DNA from: an uncultured Gammaproteobacteria bacterium
GTDB taxonomy: Bacteria > Patescibacteriota > Microgenomatia > CAYQLK01
Length of the DNA: 64,000 nt
Direction of reading: 5' to 3'
Assembly: GCA_964445355.1 (NCBI GenBank)
Contig: CAYUKQ010000003.1
Location: forward strand, 3,693-67,692
Notes under the pieces: generated by a model
Seen by the model: the letters and a program-made list of their open reading frames with translations, nothing else
Database searches by the model: none
What the model was told of the DNA's origin: nothing
In this document: positions 36,640 to 59,207 of the stretch, one piece after another
How positions within the stretch are numbered: position 1 is the first letter of the stretch
Layout: every line of letters starts with the position of its first letter
Made by a program: the position numbers and the translations under genes

Positions 36640-37990
36640 AGCTTTCTGTATATCCTATAGTAATTAAATAAAATTAATTCTCATTGATCGTAATGGGTCT
36701 TGCGGATTGAGAGAAATTTCTATTGAGATCAAGACAATTAGAAAAGATAAGAGAAGGGGTGAAAAGAGAAAAATTGGATACCGATATTGAGATAGGGAAG
36801 TAAGGCGATTTAGCTTTAATGTTTGAATTTTTGATATAGTTTGATATACTTGTGAAAAATAGCGTGAAAACAAGTGTGAAAACTGATGACAGTTAAAGGC
36901 GGGGAGTGACAAACGTGTGTTTGTGGATAACTTATTTTGATCGTAGCTGGTCTTCGTCTGTTTAAGTAGGTGGTCATCTTGCCCTGTGTGATGCTTACAA
37001 GTATTGTTCTCTGTCAATTAGGTTGGAGTATGAAAATAGCTTTAAAATTGAGTGTTTATCCTATTGTAACAATCTAAATTATTAACATAAGACTCGAATA
37101 TTATAGGGTCTATTTAGCCTTGAATGCAGAGGTGTGTTGGTATCAGGTAGTAAGGGTGTAGGGACTAATAGCATTAATCAAGAACAAGGTAAAAGGATAG
37201 ATTGATTGAGCTTGTTATCTAGATCTGCACTGCTCCCAAGATAAGTGAGTCAGAAGTAAAAAATGATATGTCGTACAATATAACTTTTGCGACGTAAAAT
37301 AAAAAAAATGGAGTGGGGTTGAAAACCAATAAAAATTAGAAAAAACTTAAAAAAATGTTTTTTGAAAATTTTTTTTCTTTGATATATTTTGATTCTGCTT
37401 TCTTTTTTTCTGGGCCTATGATGATTAATTTGATATAGTTTTATACAATTGTGTAAATTTATATATTTTTTGCGGGATTTATGAGGTAAATGGCTGTAAA
37501 AATTAAAATTTATCCGATAGACTACCCTGCCCGACTAATAAAAAGCCGTTTTAGGCCCAATCAGGGGCTTTTAGCCTCAAATACTCGGTATTTTACAGCT
37601 GAGGTGGTATAAATCTTACTTGATTCCTGGACATTAAATATTCGGAGGCCAAATACTTGTTTGTTAAAAGGATTGTTTCGGAGATTATCGGTTTCTTGGC
37701 AAAATTATCCATAATCAGGCGGATTGTCTTGCTGAGTCTAGTCGTTGCAGTGCTTGCAAGCGCGACCGCTTGGATTGTGACTCAGGATGTGTCGTGGGCT
37801 TATGTAACGTTGTTCCTTGGAGCTTTTGCTTGGGCGGCTTTTGGTACCTCTGTTACACAAATCTCTCGGCTTGATTAAGGTTTTCGTCGCCTTGTACCGG
37901 TTTTTTAAATCTTAACCCACTATTTTTTGATGGGTTTAAGAATTGACTGACCGGTTTTTCTTAAAAAGTGATATGTCGCACAATGTGATA
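36640..37990. other. 1.35-kb AT-rich non-coding region with a perfect DnaA box (36922-36930 TGTGGATAA), several 7-8/9 DnaA-box-like sites, AT-tract (37320-37410), repeated TTGATATAGTTT and GTGAAAA elements and two copies of GATATGTCG(T/C)ACAAT
   Basis: No ORF over 75 aa on either strand; motifs read directly from the sequence. Confidence 0.5.
37657..37878 (+). CDS. Possible small two-TM membrane protein (TTG start, GGAGG RBS)
   Basis: 73-aa ORF with two hydrophobic helices; weak. Confidence 0.3.
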   Translation: MFVKRIVSEIIGFLAKLSIIRRIVLLSLVVAVLASATAWIVTQDVSWAYVTLFLGAFAWAAFGTSVTQISRLD

Positions 37991-38000
37991 GAGTGGATAT

Positions 38001-38972
38001 ATGGAGACTCCCAAAAACTCGTTAAAAGAAAAAACTGATAAGTTTGAGAAAGAGATTAGGGAGTTTTTGGAGTATTTGGAGGTTGAGCGTAATGTCTCTC
38101 CCCTAACGATTAGGGACTATAAACATTATTTGGAAGTATTTGCCAGCTGGGCAAACGAAAATAATATTAGTGACATCGAAAGTGTTGATATTAAACAGAT
38201 AAGGTCGTTTCGATTGTTTTTATCAAGAAAATTAACGCAGGACGGCGAGCCTATTAAAAAAATAACCCAGAATTATTATGTGATTGCCCTAAGGGCAATG
38301 TTAAGGTTTTTGGTCAAGAATGATCGGGAGGTCTTGTCTCCAGACAAGATCGAGCTCGGTAAGCAGGAGGGTCGACAGGTAAAGTTCTTGACTCAGGATC
38401 ATTTGAATCGGTTGTTGAACAGTCCGAATATTAATAGTTTAAGCGGGTTAAGGGATAAGGCTATTTTGGAGATGCTTTTTTCGACCGGATTGCGTGTTTC
38501 TGAGATGGTTAGTTTGGACCGTGATTCGATAGATTTAAATTCGGGTGAATTTGGAGTTATGGGAAAGGGCCGCAGGGTTCGAGTGGTGTTTTTGTCGCCA
38601 GATTCTGCCACTTGGATTGCAAGATACCTCAATGCTCGGGATGATCATTACGAGCCGTTATTTGTTAGATTTAAGGGTAAAAAGTCGATTGTGGATGATG
38701 ATGAGAGCCACAGGTTAACCTCTAGGAGCATTCAAAGAATCGTTGAAAGTTATGTTAAAAAAGCACAGCTACCAATAAAAGCAACTCCGCACACTTTAAG
38801 GCATTCTTTTGCGACGGATCTATTGAATAATGGTGCTGATATTCGAAGTGTACAGGAGATGTTGGGACATAAAAATATTGCGACCACTCAAATATATACC
38901 CACGTAACGAATCGTCAGCTTAGGGAGGTGCATCAGGCTTTTCATTCAAGAAAAAAGAATGCGGACGAATAG
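38001..38972 (+). CDS. xerC: Tyrosine site-specific recombinase, XerC/XerD family
   Basis: C-terminal catalytic region HTLRHSFATDLL ... LGHKNIATTQIYTHV with the tyrosine nucleophile. Confidence 0.85.
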   Translation: METPKNSLKEKTDKFEKEIREFLEYLEVERNVSPLTIRDYKHYLEVFASWANENNISDIESVDIKQIRSFRLFLSRKLTQDGEPIKKITQNYYVIALRAMLRFLVKNDREVLSPDKIELGKQEGRQVKFLTQDHLNRLLNSPNINSLSGLRDKAILEMLFSTGLRVSEMVSLDRDSIDLNSGEFGVMGKGRRVRVVFLSPDSATWIARYLNARDDHYEPLFVRFKGKKSIVDDDESHRLTSRSIQRIVESYVKKAQLPIKATPHTLRHSFATDLLNNGADIRSVQEMLGHKNIATTQIYTHVTNRQLREVHQAFHSRKKNADE

Positions 38973-39053
38973 AAATAAAGATTATGGTCTGTGAAAACCC
39001 CACCTTACCAGGCCAAGTGCCCAGGGTAAGGTGGGAGTATAAAATGATTTCTT

Positions 39054-39386
39054 TCAGCACCAGAGTGATGTTTGGCAGACCAGAATGGTTGGCATAAACA
39101 AGAGGTCGTCGAGGTGCCATCGAGGCTGGGCATGCCTGACGCTTTTTGCAGCGCCAGTCAGCAGTTCGTAAGCCAGTTCGGGGGCCATGGTCAGGTCCTT
39201 GCCGGGTTCGCGCTTGGACACGATTGGGATCTGATCCAGGTCGAAATTGATTTGTGCAAGGCGATAGGTGGGTTTGTCCGGGCTTGGCTGGACTGGTTGG
39301 CCGTTAAAGTCGGTAAATATCGGGCGATGACGGAAAAGAACCAGACTCAGTCCGCGGCGGTTGGTACTGTTTTCAAAAAACACCAA
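39054..39386 (-). CDS. GC-rich hypothetical ORF; reading frame stays open upstream to about 39546 (directly after the SIMPL gene stop) with no canonical start before TTG 39386
   Basis: Protein-like 110-164-aa frame in a 57% GC patch; start unresolved. Confidence 0.4.
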   Translation of the reverse strand: MVFFENSTNRRGLSLVLFRHRPIFTDFNGQPVQPSPDKPTYRLAQINFDLDQIPIVSKREPGKDLTMAPELAYELLTGAAKSVRHAQPRWHLDDLLFMPTILVCQTSLWC

Positions 39387-39576
39387 CCTTGCAGCTGTCG
39401 GGTACTGTGTGAGGAGTGATTCAACTAGCCCGTCGAGTTGGGGGTGGCGCTTAAAAACTTTCGCGAACAGAGTCTTTCTCCCCTTTCCCTTCGGCGGTTT
39501 TTTGGTATACCACCGAATTTGTTTTTTTGGATTAAGGTGCTTAATCTAAGATATTATCAAATCGGGAAGGTATTTA

Positions 39577-40359: not shown

Positions 40360-40703
40360 GCATAAGTTATGTAAAAAAAAATTGGGATAAGGATCTCAGG
40401 TGAAGACGACCGACTCGCATCTTTTGCTTCGAGCTAGCGCACTCTGAAGCTATAAAAATGCTAACGCCTATTGTTGAGCCGTCTTCACCTGATGTGACAC
40501 CTTCACTCGCTGTATATCCATAAGGTTGCGTGACTGGAGAGGTTTTTCCGTGAACGCTTTTTATGGGGACGCAGTTTGTGAAGGATAATCACCTTAAGGA
40601 TGGGGACTTTCTGCTCTTGTTTCGCTGTTGAGACTCAAGCAGAGAAAAGCTCTGGTGATTAGTGAGCTGGATTGTAGCAAATTGTGGTTAATAGTCAATG
40701 AAT

Positions 40704-40739
40704 AAGAAAAAGGCCCTGGTGCGTTTTGCACCAAGGCCC
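40704..40739 (-). terminator. Rho-independent terminator on the minus strand (GGGCCTTGGTGC-aaaac-GCACCAGGGCC then TTTTTCTT)
   Basis: 11-bp stem with one mismatch plus T-run on the reverse complement. Confidence 0.6.
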
Positions 40740-41497
40740 AGAGTTGTGGTCGGGGCGCAGTCCGTCAGGACCGAGCCCCGTCTATTTGCGGGTGGCATTT
40801 TCCGCTGCCGGCTTTGGCTCGCGATTGAGCCGGTGCCCACAGTCGGGGTTCATGCCCCCATGGTTTTACCTCGCGATCGAGGCCGCTGCCTTGTGCGTCA
40901 CGGCAGAAACGGTGGCGGCTGTTTTAAGGCGGCCACTTTTGGTCAATCGCAACGAGACTTTGTATCTCGGTGCGGGCCGGCCATATTCGCGGGCGGCCTT
41001 CGCTAGTGCCAGAGGATGACGGCACATTTTTGACATCTCCGGGGAGCGCGGACGGGCTGTCCGCGCTCCTTGCGGTCCCGAAAGCCCTCGGGACAACAGG
41101 TGAAAAAGGACAGGCACGGATAAGCCATAACCACTTTTTGCGCAGGTGGGTACCCGAGTCTCATGCGTAGAGACGCGAAGCCTGAACACCAGTGCTTGGT
41201 TGGTTTTGGCAGAGAGACACCAATTCTCTTCGTCCCCCCCCCAGAATAGGGAGTTCAGAGGAGTTATTAGTGTCAGCAAATCGTTCTCCTTGTCGATTCC
41301 GTGACGCATCCTGCCCCGCGCCCCTTTTCCCGACTAATCGGTAGGATCCCAGTGTGGGTAGTCCAGGGGGAAGCGCTTAGAGATATCAGTGTAAAAAACT
41401 GGATATTCCTAAGTGTTTCTCCCTGGATGGCTTTTGAAGCAGGAGTGCAAAGTCCTGATGATTTTTATATGTGCACAGCTAAAACAAATTAACTGCG
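40740..41497 (-). ncRNA. GC-rich (about 58%) transcribed unit of about 0.76 kb with no credible ORF: candidate structured ncRNA or decayed cassette. Contains a G9/C9 homopolymer (41234-41242) and two perfect hairpins (41043-41069, 41075-41094)
   Basis: Bounded by the consensus promoter (41504-41543) and the terminator (40704-40739); only ORF-like frames are low-complexity and overlap on both strands. Confidence 0.4.
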
Positions 41498-41503
41498 GGA
41501 GCC

Positions 41504-41543
41504 ATTATATATTATAGATGATTAATTGTCAAATACTATAGGG
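41504..41543 (-). promoter_or_regulatory. Motif-promoter module copy (minus strand): CCCTATAGTA then TTGACA-N17-TATAAT (perfect consensus)
   Basis: Reverse complement read directly; points into the GC-rich 40740-41497 unit. Confidence 0.6.
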
Positions 41544-41679
41544 TTCTCCAGATTACGCTGTAATCTTCGTGTCTTCTCTTCGAGCAGGCGTTGCTTTAGT
41601 TATGCGAATTATTCTCTGGGTTTAAGCTTGGGTTTTTCAGCTACGGGGCTGGATTTGGGTTTTGTGATCTTAGTTTTAG

Positions 41680-44202
41680 CTACTTTGGCAGTTTTTGTCT
41701 CTGAAGCTGGAAGGGGGGGGCTGATTTTTCCTCTTGCTCTTCTTTGGCGATAGTTGCTGTTGCTGAGACGGTATCGCCAGCTTTGCTAAAACGCATTAAG
41801 GTAACGCCTTGAGTGTCTCTACCGAGCCGGGGAATGTTTTTGATCGGCAGGCGGATGATCTGACCTTTTTTGGAAGTTAAGACCAGAGACTCATCGGACG
41901 AATTAATTAGTTCTGCAGAGACAATTTTACCAGTTTTGCTGGTAATATTGGCAGCTTTTACTCCTTTGCCTCCCCTACCCTGCATTGTCCAGACCGATGA
42001 GAAAGATTTTTTACCAAATCCGTTCTCAGTGACAATCAGTAGTTCGTCTTTATCATTATCGATGTGGCCTACTGTTAGTCCGATGACTGAGCCGTCGTTT
42101 TTGAGGTTGATTCCCCTAACCCCCCGAGTGTCCCGGGCGGTTGGGCGGATGTTTTTTTCATTGAACTTAATTGATTGTCCGTTATCAGCAACGATAAGAA
42201 TGTAGTCTGAGCCGCTGGTTAATTTGGCCCAACGGAGTTCGTCGCCGTTGTCGAGATTGATAGCGATAATACCAGTACGGCGGATATTGCTGAACTTAGA
42301 GATGGTCGTTTTTTTGACAATACCTTTTTTGGTTACCAGTAAAATATTGGCATCAGGCGATGTGGTCTTGGCGATCGGTAGTATAGATAATATTTCTTCC
42401 CGTTGCTCAATATCGATAAGATTAATGATCGCTTGACCTTTGGCGGTTCGTGAGCTTTCCGGTACTTCGTGCGTTTTAAGCTGGAAAACCCGGCCGCGAT
42501 TAGTAAAGAACATCAATGAATCGTGGGTTTGGCAGCGGATTAAGTGTGAGACGACGTCTTCTTCTTTGGTGGTAATACCGGAGATACCCTTGCCGCCACG
42601 GCGCTGAGTTTTGAAAGTATTGGGTAATTGGCGCTTGATGTAGCCTGTTTTGGTGATGGTTACGATGGTTGGTTCGTTAGCAATGAGGTCTTCTTCAGAA
42701 AATTCACCAATCTTGTTTTTGATGATCTTGGTGCGACGGGCATCACCATATTTTTCTTTGATCTCGATCAGTTCGGTCTTGGCGAGTTGAAGGATTTTTT
42801 CTGGATGCGCAAGTAGGTCTTCTAAATAAGCAATCAATTCACGAACCTGCTTAAGCTCTTCTTCGATCTTGAGCCTTTCCAGTGCAGCTAAACGTCTTAG
42901 TTGCATATCCAAAATCGCCACAGCTTGAAGTTCTGAAAGTTTGAATTTGGACATTAATTGGGTTTTGGCTGTTTCGACATCAGCAGCGGCTCGAATAATA
43001 CGGATCACTTCGTCAATGTTGTCGACGGCAATTTTTAGCCCCTCGAGGATATGTTCTCTGGCTTTGGCCGCTTTGAGATCGAATTCACTGCGTTTGGTAA
43101 TTACATTCTGACGGTGCTTAATAAACTCGTGAAGCATGATGTTAAGAGTCATAGTTTGGGGAATTCCGTCGATCAGTCCAACCGCATTGACCGAAAAACT
43201 CTGTTGCATACTGGTGAGTTTGAAGAGATTGTTTAGGGTGGATTGTGGTTTGGCATCGCGTCGGAGTTCGATCGTAATACGCATACCCTTGCGATCGGAG
43301 TCGTCACGCAGATCGGCGATACCCTGAATCTTTTTGTTGCGTACGAGATCAGCGATTTTTTGGATCAAGACTGATTTGTTGACCTGGTACGGAAGTTCGG
43401 TAACTACAATTTGGAATTTGCCGTTTTTCCGCTCTTCAATATCGGCTTTGGCTCGGGTAATTATTCGGCCACGACCGGTAGCGTAAGCAGCGGTGATCTC
43501 TGTTTGGTCGTAGACGATTCCTCCGGTTGGAAAATCGGGTCCTTTGATAAATTGCAGCAGATCTTCGACTGAAGCTTCCGGGTTGTCGATTAGGTGCGTG
43601 GTCGCGTCAATGACTTCGCTTAAGTTGTGAGGAGGAATACTGGTGGCCATACCGACGGCAATACCATTCACCCCATTAAGTAAGAGATTCGGAATAACGG
43701 CCGGAAGCAGATCCGGTTCTTTGAGTGTACCGTCGAAGTTGTCGGTCCAGGTGACAGTGTCTTTGTCGATATCGCGTAAAAGTTCGTTGGAGATTGCAGC
43801 CATACGGCATTCTGTATAACGCATTGCAGCTGCAGGATCCCCGTCGATTGAGCCGAAGTTGCCTTGGCCATCGATCAATGGATAGCGGAGTGAAAAATCC
43901 TGAGCCATTCTAACTAGGGCTTCGTAAACCGGACTATCGCCGTGGGGGTGATATTTACCCAGTACCTCGCCGACAACCTTGGCACATTTTGAGTAGTGAG
44001 CTGAATGTGTTAAGCCAATCTTATACATGGCGTAGATGATGCGGCGTTGCACTGGTTTGAGACCGTCGCGTACGTCAGGAAGTGCACGTGCGACAATAAC
44101 ACTCATGGCGTAGTCGAGATATGAGCGTTTCATCTCGGCGACAATGCCACTTTCGATGACTTTGCCGATATAATCGATGTTGGTTACAGTATTTTCTGCC
44201 AT
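41680..44202 (-). CDS. gyrA: DNA gyrase subunit A
   Basis: Near-full-length match to the GyrA pattern (AAMRYTE active-site Tyr region, C-terminal beta-pinwheel repeats). Confidence 0.95.
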
Positions 44203-59085: not shown

Positions 59086-59160
59086 TTTTTCCTAAATTTT
59101 GTCGGAATTTTATATTAGTTTTACTGTTTAGATAGTGTGTTAATAATTAAGGATTATATC

Positions 59161-59201
59161 ATCCTATAGTATTTGAATTAATGTCTAAATAATGATATAA
59201 T
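59161..59201 (+). promoter_or_regulatory. Motif-promoter module copy: ATCCTATAGTA then TTGAAT-N17-TATAAT
   Basis: Read directly; followed by AAGGAG at 59217. Confidence 0.6.
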
Positions 59202-59207
59202 CAAGGG

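Follow-up and report, generated by a model that had tools for sequence, protein, structure and literature searches.

A probable Xer/dif locus in a conserved non-coding module of a Microgenomates chromosome

The gene-poor stretch described here is part of a Microgenomates (CPR), Curtissbacteria-like chromosome and lies in a window of 64 kb, the whole stretch of DNA that was analyzed. From left to right, its non-coding module is made up of tandem rightward promoter-like elements, GTGAAAA repeats, a DnaA box, a 28-bp dif-like core, a G-rich cluster, and an AT-rich tract. All elements named in an earlier, sequence-only reading of this DNA were found at their coordinates when the sequence was re-checked. 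The same reading had called the stretch gene-free, which holds for most of it with the exception of a membrane-type ORF of 73 aa at 37657-37878 (plus strand) that is kept in the genus. One further element of the module, ATATTATAGGGTC at 37098-37110, reads CCTATAAT on the minus strand and is invariant in close relatives, and throughout the class the module again contains the CCTATAAT/ATTATAGG motif.

To the right of the non-coding gap, a Xer-family tyrosine recombinase of 323 aa is encoded at 38001-38972 on the plus strand, with the Pfam Phage_integrase domain and a SAM-like N-terminal domain. It is the only integrase gene in the 64 kb. Against the NCBIfam models, the protein scored 253, 246, and 213 bits for XerC, XerD, and XerA, respectively, all below the equivalog cut-offs, and only 131 bits for XerS. 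Its entire length can be aligned with E. coli XerD (1a0p). It is 55-61% identical across Microgenomates with conserved synteny and, as judged by the retained catalytic motifs (GLRVSE, GKG, HTLRH, LGH, and IYTH), catalytically intact. A cognate Xer-family recombinase with intact catalytic residues, as expected beside a dif site, is thus present, and single-recombinase Xer systems are described as characteristically having the recombinase gene linked to its own dif (PMC5357621, PMC1914069).

The core consists of the left arm ATGTCGTACAA (37268-37278), the centre TATAAC (37279-37284), and the right arm TTTTGCGACGT (37285-37295) on the plus strand. It combines the first of two 15-mer copies pointed out by the sequence-only reading with the "inverted partner" of that copy and forms a 28-bp imperfect palindrome of 11-6-11 layout, which agrees with the definition of dif sites as a pair of imperfect inverted arms, each about 11 bp long, with a centre of 6-8 bp between them. 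Across the class, the consensus is ATGTCGCACAA-TAATAC-TTTTACGACGT, in which the arms are near-invariant and the centre is variable. Copy number was counted per 64-kb window and per locus of 13-21 kb. The full core occurs once in the window, and 65 of 81 Microgenomates loci, spanning Levy-, Gottesman-, Woese-, Shapiro-, Pace-, and Curtissbacteria, carry one copy each, in constant orientation upstream of the Xer gene. The distance from core to xer ranges from 0.3 to 4.2 kb, occasionally with genes inserted between them.

In the alignment of close relatives, the core lies within an invariant block (~37258-37301), which is followed by few substitutions up to a G-rich cluster at 37310-37318. This block is the best conserved part of the gap, the rest of which is only ~60% identical, and it is also more strongly conserved than the neighboring coding DNA. 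Conservation far above that of the surrounding non-coding DNA, a further property of dif sites, is therefore found here. The hairpin formed by the core is weak (-3 kcal/mol, z = -0.6), no pairing covariation was detected between the arms, and the commonest state at arm positions 7 and 22 is a C/A mismatch. The weak hairpin and the arms without covariation indicate that the core is a protein-binding site and not a structure; as a hairpin or terminator it was ruled out on the same values.

The sequence-only reading had named a dif site as one possibility and suggested searching relatives for the 15-mer as a conserved dif. For the first 15-mer copy, a dif site is supported by the 28-bp core, which was recovered once per locus in the 65 of 81 Microgenomates loci, beside a catalytically intact Xer-family gene. 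The region is, with good confidence, an Xer/dif locus for chromosome-dimer resolution of the Microgenomates chromosome. By analogy with XerS/difSL, XerH/difH, and XerCD/dif, one Xer monomer would bind each 11-bp arm, two sister cores would be brought into synapsis within a chromosome dimer, and strands would be exchanged across the 6-bp centre.

The 15-mer copies are located at 37265-37279 and 37970-37984. The two direct copies of the sequence-only reading were upheld and extend to a 23-nt direct repeat, identical at 21 of 23 positions and spaced by 705 bp. With up to three mismatches, the 15-mer matched 7 times in the window where 2.57 matches were expected, a number reached by none of 100 shuffles. 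The second copy was correctly placed near the xer start, its end being 16 nt before the ATG at 38001. It belongs to the xer promoter region (37962-37994, plus strand), in which the 23-nt repeat of the left flank and left arm of the core includes the half-site ATGTCGCACAAT (37973-37984) and is followed by the extended -10-like element TGATAGAGT (37986-37994, plus strand). This copy is a left half-site only, with neither centre nor right arm.

In 58 of 77 relatives, a half-site in the same orientation is found no more than about 150 nt from the xer start, and it is kept class-wide regardless of the distance to the core (0.3-4.2 kb); in close relatives, the xer promoter region as a whole is conserved. 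As a general promoter motif the half-site was ruled out, since GTCGYANAAT occurs just twice in the 64 kb, in the core and in the xer promoter. Its presence in the xer promoter of 58 of the 77 genomes ties the core motif to Xer. Bound to the lone left half-site, Xer would repress its own gene.

Left of the core, the perfect DnaA box TTATCCACA lies on the minus strand at 36922-36930 (TGTGGATAA on the plus strand), as the sequence-only reading had noted. Up to 1 kb left of the core, 39 of 62 relatives have a perfect box in this orientation and 55 have one with at most one mismatch, whereas in the opposite orientation, used as a control, the numbers are 0 and 8 of 62, respectively. The box is always found 134-958 bp from the core, even where extra genes are inserted on either side. 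The additional variants matching 7-8 of 9 positions, also put forward in that reading, were at chance level, with 20 matches at up to one mismatch where 17.4 were expected, and relaxed TTWTNCACA boxes were likewise not enriched in the window (5 found, 7.5 expected). With the box count at chance, the perfect box gains its weight solely through being conserved in relatives.

Two tandem extended -10 promoter-like elements (TGATATAGT and TGATATACT), 10 nt apart and directed rightward, are located at 36832-36850 on the plus strand and are kept in relatives immediately upstream of the DnaA box. Such elements matched 20 times in the window, of which five matches are in the gap, all on the plus strand; other copies lie 36-45 nt upstream of ORF starts. 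The pair is followed by three GTGAAAA repeats with 12-nt spacing (36852, 36864, and 36876, within 36851-36882), all kept in close relatives, the first of which overlaps a relaxed minus-strand DnaA box, TTTTTCACA, at 36851-36859. Near the box, TTTTCAC/GTGAAAA motifs occur at 5.5 per kb in the 62 relatives, 32-fold above the background of 0.17 per kb. These repeats, as well as the TTTGATATAGTTT...TTGTG element (36830-36858 and 37429-37457), were present as first described. A G-rich cluster, AGGCGGGGAGTGAC at 36897-36910 (plus strand), is invariant in the alignment with Curtissbacteria relatives, and purine-rich clusters are found at the equivalent place in wider relatives.

Immediately right of the core, a second G-rich cluster, GGAGTGGGG (37310-37318, plus strand), is near-invariant and reads GG(A/G)GTGGGG in close relatives. 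Across 65 relatives, a GGGAGAAGTGG-like cluster is a general feature between +35 and +55 from the core, where G makes up 31%. It is followed by the AT-rich tract at 37320-37471 (82% A+T), a candidate unwinding element that contains the promoter-like elements TGATATATT (37380-37388) and TGATATAGT (37431-37439). The T/A-rich, unwinding-like tract proposed at 37320-37410 proved to be 83.5% A+T, and 37321-37471 is the least stable 150-bp duplex of the 64 kb. In the 65 relatives, A+T reaches 71-78% at +75 to +125 from the core against a background of ~64%, with 47% T and 11-13% G. A small peptide gene in this T-rich tract was ruled out, as the conserved motif CCCCTACTATAGG falls in differing frames between genomes.

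The core was also detected in at least 120 viral contigs with unrelated flanks. These carriers are mostly tailed-phage-like, with the core in intergenic DNA upstream of packaging genes; the viral cores sit near terminase or portal genes or on small Zot-like contigs. The flanking DNA showed no AT-rich or G-rich pattern, no Xer-like integrase was found within reach of the viral cores, and no integrated copy between two cores was seen in the loci and viral contigs examined. An origin as host fragments or prophages was ruled out by the single sites, the lack of host neighbor genes, and the nearby terminase, portal, or Zot-like genes. Phages with the same core would exploit the host Xer. This resembles IMEX such as the CTX phage (PMC5357621), in that phage and inovirus-like contigs carry the host core with no Xer-like integrase in reach. 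The difference is that the carriers here are mostly tailed-phage-like and that integration between two sites was not seen. The many phage contigs with the core point to exploitation of Xer by far more than the filamentous phages, its best-known users.

Among characterized Xer systems, canonical XerCD/dif shares the 28-bp 11-6-11 layout, and E. coli XerD can be aligned along the whole length of the present recombinase. Read on the reverse strand, the core arms match the B. subtilis dif sequence at 14 of 22 positions, which is to be taken as a lead. In contrast to XerCD/dif, one recombinase gene was seen in the 64 kb, its XerC and XerD scores are about equal, neither reaching the cut-off, the recombinase gene and its site are linked, and no skew switch occurs at the site. 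XerS/difSL of streptococci and lactococci (PMC1914069) is alike in that an Xer-family recombinase is linked to its own atypical dif, built from a central region between two imperfect inverted arms, and in that comparisons among genomes revealed the site as a short stretch of high conservation ahead of the recombinase gene. However, difSL is 31 bp long with an 11-bp centre, as opposed to 28 bp and 6 bp here, and lies immediately upstream of its gene, as opposed to 0.3-4.2 kb; the present core is away from any GC-skew shift, and the enzyme has the length of XerC/D (323 aa) and scored just 131 bits against XerS. XerH/difH of Helicobacter and Campylobacter (PMC5357621, PMC3325230) likewise has asymmetric arms and a site near an Xer-family gene but, compared at the family level, differs in the length of XerH (354-362 aa) and in the arms of difH.

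The GC skew is positive throughout the 64 kb, independent of gene strand. At four-fold sites, its replication component is +0.23 left and +0.14 right of the module, and 20 of 22 relatives likewise have positive values on either side, so that no skew switch was found at the module in the window or in these 20. This same-sign skew is equally well explained by a position in the middle of a replichore. A dif site is further expected at the terminus, at a GC-skew shift, and no sign change occurs in the window. This departure counts only if replication is bidirectional, and related complete genomes lack any skew shift (PMC7143001). For the same reason, the skew extremes elsewhere that the sequence-only reading would have taken as refutation are not simply applicable. 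Cumulative skew is monotonic in three complete Microgenomates chromosomes, for which Kadnikov et al. (2020; PMC7143001) proposed a co-located origin and terminus, with no locus named, and invoked plasmid-like unidirectional theta replication. In the set of genomes of that study, among them Ch65, MFAS01000001, and CP011210, one from Microgenomatia, CP011212, shows the usual V shape (PMC7143001), which speaks against the junction reading given below. Asymmetric skew has been described for many complete metagenome-assembled genomes, mostly of CPR (PMC7111523).

That the region could be origin-like had also been suggested. The conserved and oriented DnaA box and the AT-rich tract after the core speak for this, and the missing skew switch and the lack of dnaA within 64 kb speak against it. 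As in a chromosomal oriC, there is a conserved perfect DnaA box with box-like repeats, a G-rich cluster, an easily melted AT-rich tract, and a conserved intergenic position. Different from oriC, and counting against an origin, there is a single strong box, separated by a few hundred bp from the AT-rich tract (median ~390 bp, farther than in characterized origins). Where oriC has a cluster of boxes, the module has a perfect box, a relaxed one, and the three GTGAAAA repeats, with the window count at chance level. Neither a GC-skew minimum (negative to positive) nor linkage to dnaA/dnaN, which is common but not universal, was seen, and tblastn with a B. subtilis DnaA query found no dnaA within the 64 kb or in 84 related loci.

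The best reading of the module, a strong possibility that stops short of being probable, is the co-located origin/terminus junction proposed for Microgenomates. The conserved module around the core would be the replication origin, and the same G-rich strand on both flanks implies that forks would leave it rightwards only. They would then circle the chromosome and return from the left, so that origin and terminus would coincide with dif exactly at the junction. More tentatively, Microgenomatia as a whole may replicate by a one-way theta mechanism, with DnaA box, dif, and unwinding tract within ~1 kb and with CPR phages using the site through the host Xer. No factor enforcing one-way replication was identified in this analysis, and gyrB and gyrA would run head-on to the proposed replication. 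ColE1-type plasmids have a unidirectional theta origin, promoters that fire towards the start site, and an Xer site (cer) nearby. The module is comparable in its proposed one-way theta replication, its promoter-like elements directed towards the proposed start, and its probable Xer site close by. It differs in being part of a chromosome of ~0.7-1.3 Mb with core genes, in having a DnaA box, and in giving no evidence of an RNA II-like primer.

In the textbook bacterial chromosome, replication is bidirectional and dif lies opposite the origin. Here, the module may be the sole start and end point of one-way chromosome replication, which makes it a concrete, class-wide, and testable candidate locus for this mode in Microgenomates. 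Among the closed or near-closed records with the module are CAYOLO010000001.1 (at 463.8-484.8 kb), JACPKY010000002.1, CAZDOJ010000001.1, CAZFRF010000001.1, CAWGXL010000011.1, and DAITMO010000001.1. No earlier description of a dif site for CPR/Patescibacteria was found in the literature searched, and the 28-bp core gives a large class of uncultivated bacteria its hitherto missing candidate Xer target. It could also serve as a marker to orient and check Microgenomates assemblies and, once genetic tools are developed, as a candidate site for integration.

The main rival to the junction reading is a true but position-independent Xer resolution site, like plasmid cer or psi, on a bidirectionally replicated chromosome with the locus in mid-replichore, which we consider possible but rather doubtful. 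All evidence on the core and Xer fits it equally, same-sign skew on either side is expected in mid-replichore, and there is only one strong DnaA box with no dnaA nearby. The flanks (DnaA box, GTGAAAA, GAGGCTAA, and AAAATACGAA motifs) would then be accessory or regulatory sequences, for resolution selectivity or for control of xer. The accessory sequences around cer and psi keep a fixed order, and the flanking motifs hold a fixed order across ~0.7-1 kb around the core in relatives. Archaeal XerA, moreover, works without FtsK (PMC5357621). Against a cer-like site, characterized chromosomal dif sites belong to the terminus region, as for the dif of XerA (PMC5357621) and for difSL, which was located by a search at the GC-skew shift (PMC1914069). 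DnaA boxes are not known to act as Xer accessory sites, the conserved AT-rich tract and the tandem promoters are left unexplained, and the monotonic skew of related complete genomes (PMC7143001) requires a separate explanation.

It is unlikely that the gap is a regulatory or promoter region, or a non-coding RNA, for xer and the small ORF, with the palindrome as a transcription-factor operator or RNA hairpin that has no role in recombination or replication. The five rightward promoter-like elements in the gap, the DnaA box just past a -10-like element, as at DnaA-repressed promoters, the -10-like TACAAT/CACAAT within the left arm, and the half-site in the xer promoter are compatible with it. 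A structured RNA would be expected to match a known family or to show covariation, and neither was found, Rfam having no match in the gap, the 64-kb window, or 10 relatives; the order and orientation of the GTGAAAA/TTTTCAC motifs differ from genome to genome. The weak hairpin (-3 kcal/mol, z = -0.6) and the prevailing C/A mismatch at 7/22 argue against it as well, as do the occurrence of the core alone in diverse phages with unrelated contexts and the 11-6-11 layout with variable centre, which is that of a tyrosine-recombinase site.

Very unlikely is an origin alone, in which the palindrome binds an initiator or replication factor also recruited by phages and Xer is a mere neighbor. The palindrome does occupy the classical place of a DnaA box, directly left of the G-rich cluster and AT-rich tract, and its phage copies are intergenic. 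On the other side stand the absent skew switch, the phage flanks without AT-rich or G-rich pattern, and the half-site in the xer promoter (58 of 77), by which the motif is tied to Xer.

Least probable by far is that the two 15-mers are attL and attR of an integrated element of ~700 bp, as the sequence-only reading had considered. The 23-nt direct repeat at 705-bp spacing and the adjoining integrase-family gene would fit this, but the right copy lacks centre and right arm and is conserved as a promoter half-site (58 of 77) at any core distance, the 700 bp between the copies are syntenic and footprinted in related genomes, and the indel anticipated between strains is absent from four near-identical strain contigs, so that two sites flanking presence/absence DNA are not seen here.

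The small ORF, genus-specific and hydrophobic, has a TTG start and a GGAGG ribosome-binding site and is annotated as a gene on related contigs. Its substitutions per codon position amount to 27/13/32; profile searches gave no family match, and it was not found in wider relatives. Ahead of it, a block at 37470-37615 (plus strand) that includes TTTAGCCTCAAAT and the -10-like GGTATAAAT is strongly conserved within the genus, with no codon periodicity in its substitutions and no Rfam match. A second, similar ORF-poor stretch is located at 40360-41680.

The DNA is chromosomal and derives from a bacterium of the Microgenomates (CPR), whose Xer protein clusters at 90% identity with, among others, a Candidatus Curtissbacteria protein. 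Genes are arranged in the order TPR gene (minus strand), yebC, ruvC, a DUF5656 membrane-protein gene, a largely non-coding gap (about 36640-37990), xer, and then the SIMPL gene, gyrA, and gyrB, all on the minus strand. The same order was found in 80 species-level genomes of Levy-, Gottesman-, Woese-, Shapiro-, Pace-, and Curtissbacteria, across which the gap measured 0.8 to 4.7 kb, with extra metabolic genes in the longer gaps. The k-mers most widely common to the gaps of these relatives all came from one 28-bp element, the core, which lies at 37268-37295 and in which a 6-bp centre separates two 11-bp arms that are imperfect inverted repeats (ATGTCGTACAA-TATAAC-TTTTGCGACGT). It is the single such site in the whole 64 kb. 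The core occurred in the gap of 65 out of 81 loci, in one copy each and in constant orientation, while most loci without it in the gap were truncated upstream and two more had a copy just outside the assumed gap limits. Across the class, a single oriented 28-bp site of the recombinase type is linked to an intact Xer gene. The sequence-only reading had described a dif-like 15-mer with an inverted partner, and both are parts of this one element.

In a logo built from sites chosen by likeness to the consensus, the arms are near-invariant and their asymmetry (GTCGCACAA vs GTCGTAAAA) is conserved too, while the centre varies among relatives (TAATAC, TATAAC, TGATAC). In Curtissbacteria relatives, no position varies across the core and the DNA directly beside it (about 37258-37301), with the rest of the gap about 60% identical. 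This block continues with few substitutions up to the G-rich cluster at 37310-37318 and is more conserved than neighbouring coding DNA in the same alignment. On the reverse strand, the arms agree at 14 of 22 positions with those of B. subtilis dif, a possible likeness. The Xer-family tyrosine recombinase encoded beside it got equal scores from the XerC (253 bits) and XerD (246 bits) models and a lower one from the XerA model (213 bits), all below the equivalog cut-offs; it aligns full-length with E. coli XerD and has the catalytic motifs. The core thus agrees with a dif/Xer site in its architecture, in its conservation, and in having an intact recombinase gene linked to it, but it does not lie at a skew shift, a criterion that presupposes bidirectional replication. 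Xer probably recombines the core and thereby resolves chromosome dimers.

Within the relatives, the core is located inside a non-coding unit, the module, which spans about 0.7-1 kb and has a fixed order of elements: CCTATAAT, tandem TGATATAGT elements, TGTGGATAA(C), TTTTCAC repeats, AAAATACGAA, TTGAGGCTAA, the core, a G-rich cluster (+35 to +55), a T/AT-rich tract (+60 to +150), CCCCTACTATAGG, and TTGAGGCTAAATGAAGCTAAA near +197. Elsewhere in the window, TGATATAGT stands 36-45 nt upstream of ORF starts; five of its 20 matches are in the gap, all rightward, and it behaves as a putative extended -10 promoter. All elements listed in the sequence-only reading were recovered, including the perfect DnaA box TGTGGATAA at 36922-36930, the T/A-rich tract at 37320-37410 (83.5% A+T), and repeated TTTGATATAGTTT...TTGTG and GTGAAAA, found twice and three times, respectively (12-nt spacing). 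Its 7-8/9 DnaA-box variants were not enriched in the window, with 20 sites of at most one mismatch against 17.4 expected and five TTWTNCACA sites against 7.5 expected. Among relatives, the DnaA box was perfect in the window's orientation in 39/62 and had at most one mismatch in 55/62, compared with 0/62 and 8/62 in the opposite orientation. Its distance from the core is 134-958 bp, even with genes inserted on either side, and TTTTCAC/GTGAAAA is 32-fold enriched around it in relatives. The least stable 150-bp duplex of the window is 37321-37471. The DnaA box, promoters, and AT-rich tract are tightly linked to the core.

Every 1-kb bin of the window had a GC skew above zero, regardless of gene strand. 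Gene-strand and replication effects were separated at four-fold degenerate sites in the relatives (loci L005-L084). To the left of the gap, plus- and minus-strand genes had skews of +0.09 and +0.38, giving a replication component of +0.23; to the right, the values were -0.07 and +0.35, with a component of +0.14. The coding strand favours C over G at these sites, so the gene-strand component (about -0.15 to -0.21) opposes the replication component in plus-strand genes and adds to it in minus-strand genes. The replication components of both sides were positive in 20/22 loci, so the module does not qualify as a classical skew extreme, whether minimum or maximum; no skew switch was found at it in the window or in these 20 of the 22 loci. 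Cumulative skew is monotonic chromosome-wide in the closed genomes of Microgenomates Ch65, one Collierbacteria, and one Beckwithbacteria, for which Kadnikov et al. 2020 proposed an origin near the terminus (unidirectional theta replication) and located neither (PMC7143001). Asymmetric skew was also reported by Chen et al. in many complete metagenome-assembled genomes, the majority of them CPR (PMC7111523). Our literature search returned no later paper locating a Microgenomates origin or terminus, and none on dif in CPR.

If the dif site marks the end of replication and skew does not invert there, forks would reach it from one side only, and by this geometric argument would have to start just beyond it, at the place of the DnaA box and the tract prone to unwinding. 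We tentatively propose, as a reading that falls a little short of an even chance, that the module is also the origin, with forks leaving rightwards and returning from the left, so that origin and terminus would coincide in a single locus, and dif would mark their junction. Such a module would be a chromosome-scale version of a ColE1-type replicon, which combines a one-way origin with a Xer site. Of the features of oriC, the module has a conserved DnaA box and, at a median of about 390 bp from it in relatives, an AT-rich tract; its boxes are one perfect and one relaxed copy with three GTGAAAA repeats instead of a clear multi-box cluster. It lacks a skew minimum and, in the window and 84 related loci searched with B. 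subtilis DnaA, linkage to dnaA. The main alternative, possible although on balance doubtful, is that the core is a resolution site similar to cer/psi, whose action does not depend on its position; it would be served by accessory sequences and lie in the middle of a replichore of a normally replicating chromosome.

A regulatory region or non-coding RNA is an unlikely explanation of the gap, given the results from Rfam, folding, covariation, and phages. A 146-bp block at 37470-37615, strongly conserved among Curtissbacteria and containing the class-wide motif TTTAGCCTCAAAT, had no codon periodicity, no Rfam match, and, by inspection, no convincing conserved hairpin. The potential hairpin of the core is weak (-3 kcal/mol, z = -0.6) and no base-pair covariation was found in its arms, where positions 7/22 are most often a C/A mismatch; the core thus behaves as a predicted protein-binding site, not a structure. 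Motifs of the module change order and orientation between lineages, which would fit DNA-binding sites better than RNA.

IMG/VR was scanned with GTCGYACAA-N6-TTTTRCGAC, which matched at least 120 contigs, and 80 loci were fetched (L096-L175). Positions left free in the pattern also agreed in these loci, e.g., T at position 12 and the outer A(T/C)...(A/G)T. The viral core was single in all but one locus and intergenic in 71/80, near genes for the large and small terminase subunits and portal, or, in contigs of 4-5 kb, near a Zot-like protein instead (e.g., L104, L115, L119, L124). Neither chromosomal neighbour genes nor Xer-like integrases were near the core in the 80 loci, and its flanks there resembled the chromosomal ones neither in motifs nor in composition. 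The core is thus an autonomous unit common to hosts and mobile genomes. The pattern would be expected for elements exploiting host Xer, and phages may use the host enzyme via the core. One contig, L106, has an extra left half-site (GTGTCGCACAAT) about 40 nt to the right of its full core, a layout resembling the chromosomal core-plus-half-site arrangement.

On the chromosome, two GATATGTCG(T/C)ACAAT copies, at 37265 and 37970 as first read, extend to a 23-nt repeat with 21/23 identical positions. The second copy (37962-37984) repeats the left flank and left arm of the core and nothing more. It is part of the xer promoter, with an extended -10-like TGATAGAGT and then the xer ATG downstream. GTCGYANAAT occurs in the window at these two sites only, and a half-site of the same orientation is present no more than about 150 nt from the xer start in 58/77 relatives, independent of the distance to the full core. 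The simplest inference is that xer is autoregulated by its own product, which would repress the promoter from this half-site. For XerS/difSL and XerH/difH, which work with a single recombinase, linkage of the gene to its site is a described hallmark (PMC1914069, PMC5357621), and the XerS/difSL module is the closest likeness in the working of core and xer. That the module is an origin only is very unlikely, since the promoter half-site ties the motif to Xer. The proposal that the two copies are an att pair bracketing a small element was rejected with hardly any doubt because the second copy is this conserved half-site and four near-identical strain contigs had no indel.

The gap, described in the sequence-only reading as the largest gene-free stretch, is not entirely without genes: a membrane-type ORF of 73 aa, preceded by a ribosome-binding site of its own, lies at 37657-37878 and is kept in the genus. 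The interval between core module and xer contains 2-4 kb of additional genes in many relatives (L010, L015, L027, L036, L050, L061). Most of these genes are on the minus strand, a protein of about 460-490 aa recurs among their products, and the interval looks like a putative hot spot of gene gain and loss. The DnaA box and core were never separated in these relatives. Directly after xer, 38973-39576 is GC-richer (about 50%) with no convincing ORF, and relatives have a minus-strand ORF of 137-143 aa with no assigned function at this position. The window's other least-stable AT-rich spot, 59105-59205, is intergenic and has TGATATAAT promoter-like elements on both strands (59153, minus; 59193, plus). 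The Xer protein also matched chain 14 of PDB 9i5v over its full length (E = 1e-31); its label, 'Ribosome-associated translation inhibitor RaiA', suggests an oddity of that entry. A stretch at about 40700-41400 (minus strand), flanked by the SIMPL gene and gyrA, is GC-rich (about 50%) and ORF-poor, with no consistent ORF and no Rfam match at E up to 1. It folds far better than shuffled sequences (minus strand, z = -8.5; plus strand, z = -6.3), and a strong terminator-like hairpin near 40705-40740 closes it. Identity with Curtissbacteria relatives is about 70%, and compensatory changes were found in 37/179 predicted pairs across five sequences; the minus strand of this stretch may encode a large structured non-coding RNA.
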